A DNA stretch of 40,859 bases from a virus (Duplodnaviria > Heunggongvirae > Uroviricota > Caudoviricetes). The stretch lies in IMG/VR virus record IMGVR_UViG_2597489870_000008. The stretch is one strand, 5' to 3'. Under the pieces are notes generated by a model that saw only the letters and a list, made by a program, of their open reading frames with translations, had not been told where the DNA came from and searched no databases. The translations under genes and the position numbers were made by a program. Position 1 is the first letter of the stretch. Each line of letters begins with the position of its first letter. Of this stretch, positions 542 to 40,859 are shown piece after piece.

Positions 542-1579
542 TTAACGCTTATCCGCCACCAGTTTGAGCGCGTGTTCCAGCACGTTAATGTCAGCACCCG
601 CTTTATGGGCATTTTCACTTAAATAACGCCGCCACTGCCGCGCGCCAGGAATACCCTGGAACAAGCCCAGCATATGCCGGGTAATATGGCCGAGATACGT
701 CCCCTGGCTGAGTTCACGCTCAATGTACGGATACATGGCGCGCACTACCGCCACCGGATCGGCATCGGTATCCGAGGAACCAAAGATCTCCCGGTCTACC
801 GCCGCCAGAATACCCGGATTCTGATACGCCTCGCGCCCGACCATCACGCCATCCATATGTTGCAAATGCGCTTTAGCTTCTTCCAGCGACTTGATGCCAC
901 CGTTAATCGACATCGTCAGATGCGGAAAGTCACGCTTCAGTTGATACACACGCGGATAATCGAGCGGCGGGATTTCACGGTTTTCTTTCGGGCTTAACCC
1001 CGAAAGCCAGGCTTTACGTGCGTGGATGATGAACATCTCACACTCGCCTTTGCCGGAAACGGTGTTGATGAAATTGCAGAGAAATTCATAGCTGTCCTGG
1101 TCATCGATGCCAATACGCGTTTTCACCGTCACCGGAATCGACACCACATCGCGCATCGCTTTCACGCAGTCGGCAACCAGCTGCGCATTACCCATCAGAC
1201 ACGCACCAAACATGCCGTTCTGCACCCGGTCAGACGGGCAGCCGACATTCAGGTTGATCTCATCATATCCGCGCGCTTCTGCCAGCTTCGCACACTGCGC
1301 CAGCGCCGCCGGATCGCTACCGCCGAGTTGCAACGCTACCGGATGTTCTTCTTCACTGTACGCCAGGTAATCACCTTTACCGTGAATAATCGCCCCTGTG
1401 GTCACCATTTCGGTATACAGCAGCGTATTGCGGGAAAGCAGACGCAAGAAATAGCGGCAATGTCTGTCCGTCCAGTCGAGCATAGGAGCAATGCTAAACC
1501 GAGAATTCCAGTAAACACCAGTTTTTTCAGGCATCACGCTGGTTTGATTAATTTTTTGTGTTTCATGATTATCGTGCAT
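542..1579 (-). CDS. dusA: tRNA-dihydrouridine synthase A
   Basis: 345-aa ORF with a full-length Dus/TIM-barrel flavoprotein sequence (…[21 protein letters not shown]…VKTRIGID…) matching E. coli DusA; lies next to pspG as in E. coli. Confidence 0.9.
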
Positions 1580-1611
1580 TTTTGAACATTTCAGGCTATT
1601 TTTCTCGCGTT

Positions 1612-1647
1612 AGGTTCCCGCACAGGTTCCCACGTTTTATGGGAACC
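1612..1647. promoter_or_regulatory. Cluster of AGGTTCCC motifs (two direct, one inverted) in the dusA-int intergenic region; candidate integrase or regulatory binding sites
   Basis: AGGTTCCC at 1612-1619 and 1624-1631, and inverted GGGAACC at 1641-1647 (7-bp stem with a 9-nt spacer), just upstream of the int start. Confidence 0.35.
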
Positions 1648-1667
1648 CGAAATAACGAGGTCGTGTA

Positions 1668-2826: not shown

Positions 2827-3075
2827 ATGCGTATTGAAATCTGCATAGCCAAAGAAAAAATGACTAAAATGCCAACCGGTGCTGTGGATGCGTTAAAGGA
2901 AGAATTAACCCGACGCATCAGTAAACGTTATGACGATGTAGAGGTGATCGTAAAAGCCACCAGCAACGATGGCCTTTCTGTTACACGCACCGCAGATAAG
3001 GATTCTGCAAAAACTTTTGTTCAGGAGACTCTGAAAGATACCTGGGAATCTGCTGACGAGTGGTTTGTTCACTAA
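2827..3075 (+). CDS. dinI: DinI-family DNA damage-inducible protein
   Basis: 82-aa ORF ([11 protein letters not shown]…[15 protein letters not shown]) with the overall pattern of E. coli DinI (MRIEV…ETWESADDWFV); GAGGG RBS; preceded by a LexA box. Confidence 0.8.
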
Positions 3076-31025: not shown

Positions 31026-31963
31026 CCCCTGAATCCTGCCGGGATCTGGCTGTAGTCCACGTTGTCGTAACTGGCTTTGAAGTACGGGTCTTCGCGTTTT
31101 TCGGTGTACGTGCTGACGGACGGCGATAAGCGCAGGGAAAGCTCATCCCATTTTTCCCGCAGCTTCGACGGGCTGAGCACGTTACGGCACCAGAACGGAT
31201 CGCGACTGACGCGGCTGTACATCTCGCAGATTTGTTTATGAGTACGACCATCCTGCACACACATCAGGCGAATTTCGTTTGCCCAGGCTGTCCAGTTCGG
31301 TTCTTTGGGACGAACCACCTCGCCGTCACATTCGGCGGCCTGCTCGTACAGGGCGATGATTTTTTTCCAGAGCCACTGTGCGCAGGTCAAATTATCCTGC
31401 GTTCCCCACTGGCGCTTTTTAGGGCTGAATACAACCGCATCAGGATGGCGAGTTAAAAACTCCTGTTCAGCCGTCTGCGTGTCCGGTTGCGAAGCGTCCG
31501 GACGAGAAGTTTTTTTATCTGACGGATCATGTTTTGATTTTACTGACGGATCCCCGCCAGATTCTGACGGGTGAAAACCCGCTTTTTTGCCAGATTTCGA
31601 CGCATCAAATTTTGACGGGTCAGATTTTGATGCGTCAGATTTTGACGGGTCAGAATCTGACAGTTGAGAAAATGCCGCTGCCTGAAGCTTCGCAACGTTA
31701 AGCTGATAAACATTCGACGCATTGCGGTTACCCTGGCGACGCGCCTTACGCGTTAACCAGCCTTCTGCTTCCAGCCGTGCGATAGCCGTTCTGACGGTAC
31801 TCATTCCCGCGCTAATCTGGCGGGCAATGGTTTCAATTGATGGCCAACACACACCTTCGTCATTACTGAAATCAGCCAGGCGGGCCATAATTGCCACGCT
31901 GGATAACTTCATGCCTGACGCAGCGCAACCATCCCATACATAGCCGGTTAATTTAGTGCTCAT
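31022..31963 (-). CDS. Replication initiation protein (O-like replisome organiser) with an internal iteron-encoded repeat
   Basis: 313-aa ORF with an N-terminal winged-helix region (…ETIARQISAGMSTVRTAIARLEAEGWL…) and a central SDSDPSKSDASKSDPSKFDASKSG repeat encoded by DNA iterons; GAGG RBS. Confidence 0.75.
   Translation of the reverse strand: MSTKLTGYVWDGCAASGMKLSSVAIMARLADFSNDEGVCWPSIETIARQISAGMSTVRTAIARLEAEGWLTRKARRQGNRNASNVYQLNVAKLQAAAFSQLSDSDPSKSDASKSDPSKFDASKSGKKAGFHPSESGGDPSVKSKHDPSDKKTSRPDASQPDTQTAEQEFLTRHPDAVVFSPKKRQWGTQDNLTCAQWLWKKIIALYEQAAECDGEVVRPKEPNWTAWANEIRLMCVQDGRTHKQICEMYSRVSRDPFWCRNVLSPSKLREKWDELSLRLSPSVSTYTEKREDPYFKASYDNVDYSQIPAGFRG
31516..31663. repeat. Iteron array (about 8 copies of a roughly 15-bp CAGATTTTGACGGGT-like motif); candidate replication origin within the initiator gene
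   Basis: Tandem degenerate direct repeats visible in the DNA (…cagattctgacgggtg…caaattttgacgggtcagattttgatgcgtcagattttgacgggtcagaatctgacag). Confidence 0.55.
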
Positions 31964-38000: not shown

Positions 38001-38292
38001 GGAGAAAATTATGAACACCTTGTTTTTACTGATGGCTGAATTCAATACCTCAAACATTGAACTCTCAGCAGTTAGCCAAAAGTACTTTGGTATGAGTCCA
38101 GCCACAGCAGAAGCAAAAGCAAACGCTTGTAAGTTGCCTGTTCCTACATATCGCATTGGCACATCACAAAAAGCAAAACGTTGCATCAATATTCAGGATC
38201 TTGCGGAATACATAGATAAAAGACGAGAAGAAGGACGTATCGAGTGGGAACGGGTCAGAACAGACAAACAGAAGAGCAAAGAACATCACTAA
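38001..38292 (+). CDS. PrtN/AlpA-like small DNA-binding regulator (excisionase-like)
   Basis: MNTLFLLMAEFNTSNIELSAVSQKYFGMSPATAEAKANACKLPVPTYRIG…NIQDLAEYIDKRREEGRIEW resembles pyocin-activator PrtN-type proteins; GGAG RBS. Confidence 0.55.
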
Positions 38293-38484: not shown

Positions 38485-39519
38485 TCAGAAAAATATTTCA
38501 GCTTTTTTACCATCAAATACCCACTCGCTGGATAAGATTTTCATATTGCTAGCATAATTAAAAGTAAATTCTATCATTATCTTTTGTTTATCATTCGGAT
38601 AGTCGAAAACCTCTAATAAAAAGAAATCTCCTATAATCGAATAACAATGTATGCAACAGTTAGATAAATAACAATCACTGTCTCTGTCCTTAACAGTACC
38701 AATTCCAGCCGCCCAGAGTTTTTTGTTATCCACGTGAGTGGCTATTAGTTCTTTGACATCAGAATCACGAAAAGATAAAAACTTGACGAATACGGACTTA
38801 CTGTAAACAGAAATACCTCTGATAATTCCAGTTCGTTTCTTACATCTCCAGCATTTTGTAACTCGCGATTCTATTTTTGCAGTCAGCACATCCCCAACCT
38901 TTGGGAACCATAATAGCTTTCTGGCAAAAACACCCGCGATAAACTCCCTGACACTAATCCCAAACTGTGGTAGATACAAGTCCCCATTTTCATTCTGACG
39001 CACACCAAAAACAGGTAAATCGTAGCTATGGTATATATTCCCACCATGCTCTTTACTTCCTTTACGTAACTTTCGCAACCACAGTGCACGGACTCCTGAT
39101 GCGATATATCGTTTTTGACGTTCTTTAAATTCATCGTCTTTTTGCGGTGATAACTGTACTTCGAAAACCAGTTTCGCGTTATTTCTGGTACAAAACACAT
39201 CGGCAATCCATTGTTCTCCTGCTGGGGTCGCCCCTTGTTTTTCGGTAGTAACTGACCAGCCAGCATCACTGGCTAATTTTGCGATTAAGAATTTGAGATA
39301 TAAATGTTCTGCGCTTTCTTTCGCATACAGGCAATCGCTTTTGGATTTATGTGCAAAGTAATAGTTATTAAGTTTGCTTGTTTTAGGTATACCAGGCTGA
39401 CCACAGCACGACATAAACAAAGACTGGCTTTTATATGTCTGTTTAAGATATTCCCATTCCTGAGAGTTAAATTCAAAAGAATGAATTTCTTTTCCGTTAA
39501 GTGACGCTTTTAGTGGCAT
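38485..39519 (-). CDS. CoiA-like (competence protein CoiA family) putative nuclease
   Basis: 344-aa AT-rich ORF; N-terminal CCGQPGI…NYYFAHKSKSDCLYAKESAEHLYLKF fits the CoiA signature (Cys pair, FAH, ESxEH) as I recall it. Confidence 0.55.
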   Translation of the reverse strand: MPLKASLNGKEIHSFEFNSQEWEYLKQTYKSQSLFMSCCGQPGIPKTSKLNNYYFAHKSKSDCLYAKESAEHLYLKFLIAKLASDAGWSVTTEKQGATPAGEQWIADVFCTRNNAKLVFEVQLSPQKDDEFKERQKRYIASGVRALWLRKLRKGSKEHGGNIYHSYDLPVFGVRQNENGDLYLPQFGISVREFIAGVFARKLLWFPKVGDVLTAKIESRVTKCWRCKKRTGIIRGISVYSKSVFVKFLSFRDSDVKELIATHVDNKKLWAAGIGTVKDRDSDCYLSNCCIHCYSIIGDFFLLEVFDYPNDKQKIMIEFTFNYASNMKILSSEWVFDGKKAEIFF

Positions 39520-39546
39520 TCATGCTACCTGTATTTACCCTCCCAG

Positions 39547-39587
39547 CGAGGGAAATTAAGATATCAAAAAACCATTATCTGGTGAAA
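39547..39587. repeat. Right 41-bp terminal inverted repeat flanking the CoiA-like gene
   Basis: Reverse complement TTTCACCAGATAATGGTTTTTTGATATCTTAATTTCCCTCG; lies 28 nt upstream of the CoiA-like start codon. Confidence 0.6.
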
Positions 39588-39657
39588 CGCAGTACCATCA
39601 CACTTAAGTGAACGACATTATGTCTAAAGACATTTTAAAAAAATCACCACCTATGAA

Positions 39658-39831
39658 TCATACTGCTTTGCGACGACGAAGCTTACCCTGCTGCTCTTTA
39701 CCAGAGACAGTAACGTGAGTGAACGCATTAGGAGCAGCCTTCATCAGAACTTCAACAGCAGCACCCATACCTGCGAATGCTTTCATTGTGTCGAACTTAA
39801 GCTGTGGCTTGGTTGCTTTTTGATCTTCCAT
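39658..39831 (-). CDS. Small hypothetical protein (57 aa) downstream of the candidate toxin gene
   Basis: Hand-found ORF below the track cutoff: MEDQKATKPQLKFDTMKAFAGMGAAVEVLMKAAPNAFTHVTVSGKEQQGKLRRRKAV, with GGAG 8 nt upstream. Confidence 0.4.
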   Translation of the reverse strand: MEDQKATKPQLKFDTMKAFAGMGAAVEVLMKAAPNAFTHVTVSGKEQQGKLRRRKAV

Positions 39832-39870
39832 AGAAAACTCCAGAAGCTATACCGAAACAATTCCTGTTGT

Positions 39871-40290
39871 TTACTCATCATCAATAGATGATACGCAATA
39901 TTTATTTTTAAATTTAAGGTTCTTTGGCGTAACTTCATCAGATATATCAAAACCGTCCAGAATTCTATTGAATGTAGCTTCTGGCATATCATCATGAACA
40001 GAAATCTCACCCGATCGCTGCTTTCTAACCATGTTATCCACTCGCCAAATTATAGCTTCAGCGTAAACAACATAACTTGGATGCTTGATAAAGCGATGAT
40101 CACCGGAATTCAAAACGCAAGACGGATCGTGGGGGACACCATCCTTGATACTAGAAATATTAACAACTAAAACACAATAACAATCGTTAACGGGGTAATA
40201 AACAGGATCATTACAAATCACATGAAGATGATTGCATGGTCCAGTTGGGGCAAGCACAGTTCCTTTCCTGTATGGCTGATAATCCGTCAT
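39871..40290 (-). CDS. Uncharacterised 139-aa protein translationally coupled to a Panacea-domain gene; candidate PanT-type toxin or defence effector
   Basis: ATG overlaps the stop of the upstream DUF4065 gene (ATGA); AT-rich; Cys/His-rich (…GPCNHLHVICNDP…DPSCVLNSGDHRFIKHPSYV…); no known family recognised. Confidence 0.55.
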   Translation of the reverse strand: MTDYQPYRKGTVLAPTGPCNHLHVICNDPVYYPVNDCYCVLVVNISSIKDGVPHDPSCVLNSGDHRFIKHPSYVVYAEAIIWRVDNMVRKQRSGEISVHDDMPEATFNRILDGFDISDEVTPKNLKFKNKYCVSSIDDE

Positions 40291-40859
40291 GATAATTGCA
40301 AAGAAAATTCCTTAAGTTTCTGAGATTCTTCCATTTTGCCAATTATACGATTAGCCTCATCCTCGCTTTTACCCTCACTGATCAACATTTCTTTCAGGTC
40401 TATAGGCTTACGAGAATTGCCAGGATCGTGCCACTCTGGACAAACGCTTTCTAAATGCGTCATATTTGCGAGATCAAATCGGTTCATATGCCCATACCGA
40501 GAATAGATTTCATCTAAAATCCGGATATCTGCACGACTCAATTCATCAAAGACCTCGTCTGCATCCATTTCCCTCGGATCTGAACGCAACGATACATTAT
40601 GCCCGTTCGTCTCTATCAAGTTGTACCAGTAGTCACCAATGCCTTCAGCCTTACCGCGAATCAAGTTCAGCGTATTCGACATGACTGGTCCAAATTTCAT
40701 AGAGTAAAGGCTATCTTCGCCGATCATCCTGCCATGCTTCAAAATCGACTGGCGGTTAGACAGATAGAGCAGCTTCATCAATTTCAGATATGCCATGCGC
40801 CCACCTCTCTTAAGAAGTAGGTATGCAGCCATTTGAGCTACTTTTTCTTCGCAAAACAT
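40287..40859 (-). CDS. Panacea-domain (DUF4065, SocA/GepA-like) protein; candidate antitoxin (the N-terminus may lie at or beyond the window edge)
   Basis: …MAAYLLLKRGGRMAYLKLMKLLYLSNRQSILKHGRMIGEDSLYSMKFGPVMSNTLNLI… matches the DUF4065 pattern as I recall it; the ORF reaches the last base of the window. Confidence 0.6.
   Translation of the reverse strand: MFCEEKVAQMAAYLLLKRGGRMAYLKLMKLLYLSNRQSILKHGRMIGEDSLYSMKFGPVMSNTLNLIRGKAEGIGDYWYNLIETNGHNVSLRSDPREMDADEVFDELSRADIRILDEIYSRYGHMNRFDLANMTHLESVCPEWHDPGNSRKPIDLKEMLISEGKSEDEANRIIGKMEESQKLKEFSLQLS

Follow-up and report, generated by a model that had tools for sequence, protein, structure and literature searches.

A tyrosine integrase gene lying head to head with the 5' end of dusA raises two questions: how much of dusA still belongs to the host, and what the short repeats crowded into the spacer between the two genes might be. 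This arrangement is found at the left end of the IMG/VR record IMGVR_UViG_2597489870_000008, a Caudoviricetes sequence of 40,859 nucleotides (hereafter the window), in which the integrase gene int adjoins the dusA 5' end and points away from it, the two genes being divergently transcribed. Bases 1-1700 are 100% identical to Escherichia coli SEC470 (NZ_CP007594.1). An earlier interpretation of this DNA, made from its letters only (the sequence-only reading), had proposed that the dusA 5' end was supplied by a prophage and that the repeats nearby were candidate integrase or regulatory binding sites. The data presented here identify bases 1476-1667 as attL, the junction on the integrase side, of a prophage in the 5' end of E. 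coli dusA. The best explanation for the locus as a whole, to which we assign a probability of about 0.82, is that the element entered dusA site-specifically, that a hybrid gene was kept, and that the repeats are arm-type sites of the integrase.

The prophage junction in dusA

The junction was mapped by gapless alignment of the window to the prophage-free strain MG1655. Identity is 99.1% over bases 1-541 and 98.2% over 542-1475 (17 mismatches in 934 bases), complete over 1476-1483 (8/8), and then falls to 81% over 1484-1579 (18 mismatches in 96) and to 25% over 1580-1667, so that divergence from the prophage-free sequence starts exactly after the core TCGAGCAT, that is, after base 1483. In the protein, which matches the Pfam Dus family with E = 9e-105, nine of the 32 N-terminal residues differ from MG1655 DusA, against one of the remaining 313. 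The gene lies on the minus strand and its N-terminus is the one quoted in the sequence-only reading, which had also suggested looking for the point of divergence in such an alignment and for a matching core at the other prophage end. Both were found, and the contrary outcome, a 5' end identical to that of prophage-free strains with no core at the far end, was checked and was not the case.

The 8-bp core is the sole block perfectly common to attL (CCGTCCAGTCGAGCATAGGAGC), attR (ACATCCTATCGAGCATTGGTGC, taken from SEC470 and lying outside the window), the empty target attB (CCGTCCAGTCGAGCATTGGTGC) and the phage site attP. With their immediate flanks, attB is CCGTCCAG-TCGAGCAT-TGGTGC, attL is CCGTCCAG-TCGAGCAT-AGGAGC and attR is ACATCCTA-TCGAGCAT-TGGTGC; as the core is common to attB, attL and attR, strand exchange is placed inside TCGAGCAT, at window 1476-1483. 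A direct-repeat search found no attR inside the window, because the window stops 255 bp short of it: in SEC470 the attR core is at the window-equivalent position 41114. A truncated tRNA-dihydrouridine synthase is annotated there beside the far prophage end, and this remnant is the native dusA 5' end, with no mismatch to MG1655 in 104 bases beginning at TCGAGCAT. On either side of the core, attP has the two halves of an inverted repeat, TCCTA/TAGGA, which by their sequence likely represent the core-type sites. The same core is present in the attP of the free phages mEp460 and YeP2, and a 7-base core at the same position was reported for phage 1720a-02 (PMC6328086).

In the free phage mEp460, whose integrase is 98.4% identical to that of the window, the P arm, the core, the dusA 5' fragment, the P' arm and int form one continuous attP. 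No prophage-free strain was found in which bases 1484-1579 are the native dusA 5' end. The claim that this end is phage-supplied is thus borne out by the divergence exactly after the core, by the native end kept at attR and by the same fragment in free mEp460. The junction (1484-1700) was found in 742 (14%) of the 5,426 complete E. coli genomes, O157:H7 included, and seven or eight of the copies are on plasmids. One of these, a copy of the same prophage in the 205-kb plasmid pEND_Eco 18005 (NZ_CP126947.1), carried the dusA 5' fragment along, where it is annotated as a dusA fragment; the insertion lies within a ParB/RepB/Spo0J-family gene, the fragment abuts the truncated ParB-family gene, and the look-alike site GTCCGGTGCCGCAT shares 10 of its 14 bases with the dusA target GTCCAGTCGAGCAT. 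When the plasmid collection PLSDB was searched with the P arm, to locate where this insertion ends on its far side, the only matches were three circular records of 37-44 kb. These records (NZ_CP081794.1, NZ_CP081704.1 and NZ_CP081716.1, listed as non-mobilisable plasmids) match the P-arm pair and core at 97-99%, and are probably circular phage genomes of the family of this integrase that were deposited as plasmids.

Other forms of the dusA 5' end were also seen in E. coli. Strain A39 (NZ_CP028737.1) has a hybrid end in which K-12-like sequence extends to about window position 1538 and phage-like sequence is confined to what lies past that point; this shifted boundary looks like the product of homologous recombination or gene conversion between the dusA 5' copies of attL and attR, which are 81% identical. 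A fairly large group of strains without the prophage (e.g. BH100N, NZ_CP025703.1) has a third type, which diverges from K-12 directly after the att core (in these strains TCAAGCAT); there dusA is directly beside zur and the DUF2713 gene is absent. The BH100N-type end may be a fossil junction of a lost dusA-targeting element.

Repeats on both arms of attP and the integrase N-terminal domain

The spacer between the hybrid dusA and int contains two exact copies of AGGTTCCC and an inverted copy, GGGAACCC on the plus strand, which forms an 8-bp inverted repeat with the second direct copy (P'1, P'2 and P'3 in Table 1). The motifs that the sequence-only reading had placed at 1612-1647 are therefore there, as exact repeats at 1612 and 1624 and an inverted copy at 1641. 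Within the 40.8-kb window the only other exact AGGTTCCC is at 14321, and sites with at most one mismatch are at chance level (23 observed, 26 expected). The pair with its inverted copy is unique in the window, yet such a triple arose somewhere in 69 of 200 whole-window dinucleotide shuffles (about 0.5 per window), a rate which scaled to the 88-bp spacer becomes about 0.001. As the triple is not significant window-wide and statistics drawn from the window are weak, only comparative data carry weight in what follows.

In the other arm of attP a matching pair, AGGTTCCC and AGGCTCCC, begins 62 bp from the core (P-arm fragment of this prophage, AACAGGTTCCCAATAGGCTCCCAC), and the five motif sites together with the core span about 235 bp. 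To place this arrangement among its relatives, attP was reconstructed for ten elements with integrases 52-100% identical, the free phages being read directly and the prophage records by joining both ends. All ten share one layout while each lineage has its own motif: AGGTTCCC/AGGCTCCC in the E. coli element of the window and mEp460, CAGCACCCC in Yersinia phage YeP2, AGTACACC in phage EKP1, AGGACACC in Morganella phage IME1369_02, AGTCACCC in Pseudoalteromonas phage C5a, and AGTACCCC and AGTACG-N-A in the Vibrio elements 1F53 and D07, respectively. The P-arm pair is 61-62 bp from the core with an 11-bp spacing in six elements, and the core is 192-194 bp upstream of the int ATG in eight. The P' pair has a spacing of 11-12 bp and is followed, in enterobacterial elements, by the inverted third copy, which YeP2, EKP1 and the Morganella phage also have, each with its own motif. 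The P' motif differs from the P arm of its own element by 0.22 mismatches on average and from the P arms of the other elements by 2.14 (permutation p = 1e-5), and 15 sites with at most one mismatch were found against 0.36 expected from shuffled arms.

The pattern was then sought in a larger sample of eighty further loci from different species, in which 78 integrase-upstream regions could be scored. A repeat matching at least 9 of 10 positions at a spacing of 11-12 bp was present in 43 of the 78; by the same criterion shuffled sequences averaged 0.26 and never exceeded 3, and control regions 500-600 bp upstream gave none in 74. It is this comparison with relatives that decisively sets the repeats apart from chance.

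Two observations on the arms of relatives may be added. Klebsiella phage Kp4882-1 (OK490460.1), with an integrase 52% identical to that of the window, has the same arm layout, with CAGCACCCC twice in the P' arm and AGGACCCC and AGAACCCC in the P arm; upstream of its int there is no TCGAGCAT-like core and no dusA-like fragment, and it may use another target gene. In Vibrio cyclitrophicus elements the stretch that separates the phage-borne dusA 5' fragment from the P' sites contains, about 60-90 bp upstream of int, a LexA-box-like palindrome (e.g. TACTGTATATATATACAGC or TACTGTACAAACATACAGT); at this place the E. coli window has no counterpart.

The integrase itself has a catalytic domain at residues 189-346 (PF00589, E = 1e-20) and a core-binding domain at 72-165 (PF24624, below the Pfam threshold). 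An alignment of 62 sequences shows no variation at R222, H332 and Y342 and almost none at H306 and R309; the R-H-R-H tetrad and the nucleophilic tyrosine of tyrosine recombinases would thus be present, their catalytic roles being assigned by position. A Pfam search with residues 1-185 returned only the sub-threshold core-binding domain, leaving residues 1-70 without a match. In the AlphaFold model (mean predicted local distance difference test score, pLDDT, 86 for the whole integrase, and 89 for the first 66 residues when modelled by themselves) this end folds into strands at 2-10, 16-26 and 29-38 and a helix at 41-58, with pLDDT of about 90. Residues 1-58 are accordingly predicted from the model to be an arm-binding domain of strand-strand-strand-helix form, three strands and one helix being the classical arm-binding topology (Smyshlyaev et al. 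2021, PMC8138268). Fold searches with so small a domain lack specificity, and Foldseek gave nothing significant for the N-terminal domain alone; the full-length model aligned with full-length lambda Int over 357-376 columns and with lambda Int 75-356 over 289-298, and the longer alignment to the full-length protein suggests that the N-terminal domains also align.

The motif classes go with the residues found in predicted strands two and three of this domain: integrases with KEKGVIT at this place have AGGTTCCC/AGGCTCCC, those with GGKYIY have CAGCACCCC, those with GGKHLH have AGTACACC and those with GKRI have AGGACACC. The pairing holds within one genus, where Rosenbergiella gaditana differs from R. 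nectarea, and even within one genome, that of Xenorhabdus hominickii, which has two loci of different classes. When 42 loci were compared in a partial Mantel test that controlled for the rest of the protein, motif distance correlated with distance in integrase residues 1-60 (r = 0.52, p <= 0.0005), whereas the reverse test, on the rest of the integrase with residues 1-60 controlled for, gave r = -0.17. A direct separation of integrase and excisionase is offered by two V. cyclitrophicus elements. In 1F53 and 52F6 the RdfN proteins, members of the PrtN family to which the directionality factor of IMEVchUSA3 belongs (Durand et al. 2021, PMC8409611), are 100% identical, while the integrases are 62% identical in the N-terminal domain and 87% in the rest; their motifs differ on both arms (AGTACCCC in one, AGTACG[C/T]A in the other), and therefore the motif follows the integrase. 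Covariation thus indicates that the arm-site sequence is specified by the integrase N-terminal domain, with one hybrid exception, 55A5, discussed below. The suggestion that the motifs are integrase binding sites gains support from their kept geometry, their presence on both arms and their covariation with the integrase N-terminal domain and not with the excisionase; the AGGTTCCC-type repeats at 1612, 1624 and 1641 are most likely integrase arm-type sites, as judged from these sequence comparisons.

Alternative explanations, working model and gene layout

The repeats could instead be excisionase sites, bound by RdfN and not by the integrase. RdfN is conserved in dusA-specific elements and needed for excision (PMC8409611), its gene is within the window and ends just upstream of the P-arm pair in YeP2, EKP1 and Kp4882, and tandem direct repeats are often bound by directionality factors. 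We nevertheless consider this explanation improbable, since 1F53 and 52F6 have unlike motifs on both arms with one and the same RdfN and since the motif tracks integrase residues 1-60. It also occupies both arms and lies in the outermost parts of attP. Directionality-factor sites are usually restricted to a single arm, where they lie between core and arm sites, as in lambda and P2. Moreover, a construct that lacks rdfN and comprises only attP, int and a resistance marker is found integrated at dusA (PMC8409611).

A second possibility is that the inverted repeat formed by P'2 and P'3 (GGTTCCCA-N7-TGGGAACC) is an operator, or an RNA or DNA hairpin, for int and the hybrid dusA, with no role in recombination. 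Its place, 20 bp upstream of the int start and within the one spacer where the promoters of int and dusA can lie, would suit such a function, and its stem covaries among E. coli, YeP2, EKP1 and the Morganella phage as that of a conserved hairpin also would. However, its RNA fold is no more stable than that of shuffled sequence (z = -0.30) and there is no terminator-like site; the direct copy P'1 and the fixed-distance pair beyond the core are left unexplained, and the Vibrio elements have the direct pair without the inverted copy. This account is improbable as well. A structural RNA as the main explanation was likewise set aside, the hairpin at 1600-1680 being no more stable than shuffled sequence. 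A scan of bases 1400-1800 found no terminator-like site. That the divergent dusA 5' end is an ordinary host allele and the repeats a chance cluster can be dismissed: other dusA 5' variants do occur in E. coli (the BH100N type) and a comparable triple appears somewhere in 35% of whole-window shuffles, but the same 5' fragment is in free phage genomes, the native end is kept at attR and the repeats recur with kept geometry in dozens of related elements, so that this view is refuted by the attR comparison, the free-phage attP, the own-arm matching and the 43 of 78 regions set against their controls.

Some results must be counted against site-specific entry with integrase arm-type sites as the explanation of the locus. 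The N-terminal domain has no sequence or profile similarity to that of lambda Int or to any solved chain (hhalign with lambda Int residues 1-64, probability 3.7%). About one third of the related loci have no clean pair under the criteria used, and among divergent E. coli copies the substitutions are too few to show selection on the motifs. The Vibrio element 55A5 (phage 10N.286.55.A5_PE002) combines a type-A N-terminal domain and P' arm with a type-B P-arm motif, type A standing for AGTACCCC and type B for AGTACG[C/T]A. Lastly, a consensus promoter scan of bases 1400-1800 found nothing, and the claim of a replacement dusA promoter therefore rests on the related element IMEVchUSA3, for which a working dusA promoter and a new DusA N-terminus were shown experimentally to be supplied (PMC8409611). 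By this analogy, bases 1580-1611 presumably hold the replacement dusA promoter of the present prophage.

The case of 55A5 is of some interest on its own. Once the ends of the record are joined, its integrase N-terminal domain and P' arm are of the AGTACCCC type, but AGTACGTA and AGTACGGA are found in its P arm. This combination looks like that of a hybrid that arose by exchange at the core, and it suggests that arms are exchangeable between elements at the shared core.

The following model can be proposed. Strand exchange took place within the 8-bp core, leaving host dusA to its left; to its right the phage provides dusA codons 1-32 and a putative promoter, which leaves an intact hybrid dusA. 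The displaced native 5' end persists as the 104-bp remnant at attR and would be rejoined to dusA upon excision. The three AGGTTCCC-type motifs upstream of int would make up the P' arm and be bound by integrase residues 1-58, and the P-arm sites AGGTTCCC and AGGCTCCC would likewise be bound by integrase N-terminal domains, while the core-binding and catalytic domains would bind the inverted TCCTA/TAGGA around the overlap. By bridging arm and core sites, the integrase would assemble the roughly 235-bp attP into an intasome for integration; with the PrtN-type RdfN it would form, as in the lambda model, an excisive complex of attL and attR that restores the native dusA. Binding of the integrase to the motifs, the order of assembly and any effect on the transcription of int and dusA are what we infer from the above.

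It is possible that the integrase regulates int as a second function, by occupying the P' sites. More speculatively, as these sites fill the spacer in which both int and the replacement dusA need their promoters, integrase occupancy might regulate the two genes; since the P' sites take up the only promoter spacer, such occupancy could make the expression of dusA, a tRNA-modification gene of the host, depend on the prophage state. A broader proposal is that the beta2-beta3 region of the N-terminal domain and the 8-bp AGnnnCCC arm motif form a modular, fast-evolving recognition code, read out on a fixed set of two P and two or three P' sites. We regard it as tentative and rather doubtful; if true, lineages could diverge into mutually incompatible specificity classes, all acting on the same dusA core.

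The coordinates of the features discussed are collected in Table 1.

Table 1. Features of the window at the dusA junction and near the far prophage end
Feature	Position	Strand	Remarks
pspG	166-408	minus	
dusA (hybrid)	542-1579	minus	
Host-derived dusA body, about codon 35 to stop	542-1475	minus	98.2% identity to MG1655 dusA
attL core TCGAGCAT, crossover/overlap region	1476-1483	no strand	three-way comparison of window, MG1655 and SEC470 attR
Phage-supplied replacement dusA 5' end, codons 1-32	1484-1579	minus	81% identity to K-12
Phage DNA upstream of hybrid dusA, presumed replacement dusA promoter	1580-1611	no strand	no K-12 similarity
P'1, candidate integrase arm-type site AGGTTCCC	1612-1619	plus	
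P'2, candidate integrase arm-type site AGGTTCCC	1624-1631	plus	12 bp start to start from P'1
P'3, inverted candidate arm-type site	1641-1648	minus	GGGAACCC on plus strand, GGGTTCCC on minus
dusA-associated tyrosine integrase, 365 residues	1668-2765	plus	
DinI-like gene	2827-3075		after int
rdfN homologue (PrtN family), near far (attR) prophage end	38011-38292	plus	PF11112, E = 1e-22

In the window the DinI-like gene is followed by a Pin-type invertase gene and then by tail genes. Between the int stop and the DinI-like gene there are LexA-box-like palindromes (CTGT-N8-ACAG) at 2766-2785 and 2794-2813, with four strand matches seen against 0.32 expected, and the DinI-like gene is probably under the control of the SOS response. 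In the early region, bases 31591-31665 were reported by a repeat finder as four overlapping 30-nt copies with a 15-bp offset, equivalent to about five tandem 15-bp units CAGATTTTGACGNGT; these are iteron-like and may mark a replication origin. The rdfN homologue is annotated in SEC470 as a PrtN family protein. Between it and attR lie genes that the relatives do not have, rdfN abutting the P arm in those elements: this region covers window 38485-40859 and runs on past the window end, with a CoiA-like protein (38485-39519, minus strand), small hypothetical proteins and, from 40287 to where the window stops, a Panacea-domain protein. These genes have the look of element-edge cargo, either accessory or of the toxin-antitoxin type.

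Comparison with known dusA-targeting and other recombinases

Elements with dusA-associated integrases (DAI) have been described as having semi-conserved flanking repeats of about 21 bp, replacing the 5' end of the gene and excising as circles (Farrugia et al. 2015, PMC4482086). The present element resembles them in having int beside the dusA 5' end and in bringing a new 5' end that includes the first beta strand of the TIM barrel; the position of int, the att repeats sharing a core, the replacement 5' end and RdfN across attP were all found here. Unlike the present work, that study defined only the core repeats and called the integrase the sole common feature, the word 'arm' occurring 0 times in it (PMC4482086).

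The closest characterised case is phage 1720a-02 (Phi-stx2dact, KF030445.1), which integrates some 100 bp inside dusA, brings along a dusA 5' open reading frame of its own and needs Int for excision (PMC6328086). Its integrase is 100% identical to that of the window and its core is the same, the attB in Citrobacter rodentium being TCCAGTCGAGCATGGGAGC, and the published primers for quantitative PCR of attP sit on the motifs discussed here (PMC6328086). It differs in being a lambdoid Stx2 phage with other structural genes; the window prophage has no stx in the part examined and has a Pin invertase beside its tail-fibre genes. No arm sites are given in that paper either, 'arm' again occurring 0 times (PMC6328086). 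IMEVchUSA3 is similar in being dusA-specific, in having int and rdfN on opposite sides of attP and in providing a new dusA promoter and N-terminus, but it is a mobilisable island under AcaCD and not a phage, and arm sites find no mention in the paper on it ('arm' occurs 0 times; PMC8409611).

The replacement of the dusA 5' end and the core were thus already known, because this integrase is 100% identical to the 1720a-02 Int, whose integration in dusA and core have been published. The arm-site assignment is the only addition to prior knowledge, a useful increment and no surprise. A full-text literature search gave no relevant description of arm sites for dusA-targeting integrases, although its coverage is incomplete and an earlier description is possible. 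In practice, exact annotation of the junction is now possible for 14% of complete E. coli genomes. If the arm sites are confirmed, the true attP would be about 235 bp long, which is relevant to dusA-targeting integration vectors; the faster divergence of the N-terminal domain than of the rest of the integrase would be explained, and natural pairs of motif and N-terminal domain would be at hand for studying or re-engineering arm specificity.

Among the characterised recombinases, the closest relative of the DAI group is reported to be Rci, the shufflon recombinase of R64 (PMC4482086). The catalytic domains are related, and the mEp460 record annotates its integrase as INT_Rci (cd00796). Rci, however, is without an arm-binding domain (PMC8138268) and inverts DNA between sfx repeats. 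The integrase described here departs from this two-domain type, having an additional, confidently predicted N-terminal domain and carrying out integration into dusA and, as published for the identical 1720a-02 Int, excision.

In lambda, a three-domain Int acts on an attP of about 240 bp with the arm sites P1, P2 and P'1-P'3, and a small directionality factor serves excision. The element of the window differs from it in several aspects: the N-terminal domains share no detectable sequence similarity, the third P' site is inverted, the directionality-factor gene is across attP from int and not beside it, and integration is into a protein-coding gene, the 5' end of which sits in attP between the core and the P' arm. 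The likeness to lambda lies in the predicted strand-strand-strand-helix of the N-terminal domain, in two sites on one arm and three on the int-proximal one, and in an arm sequence unrelated to that of the core.

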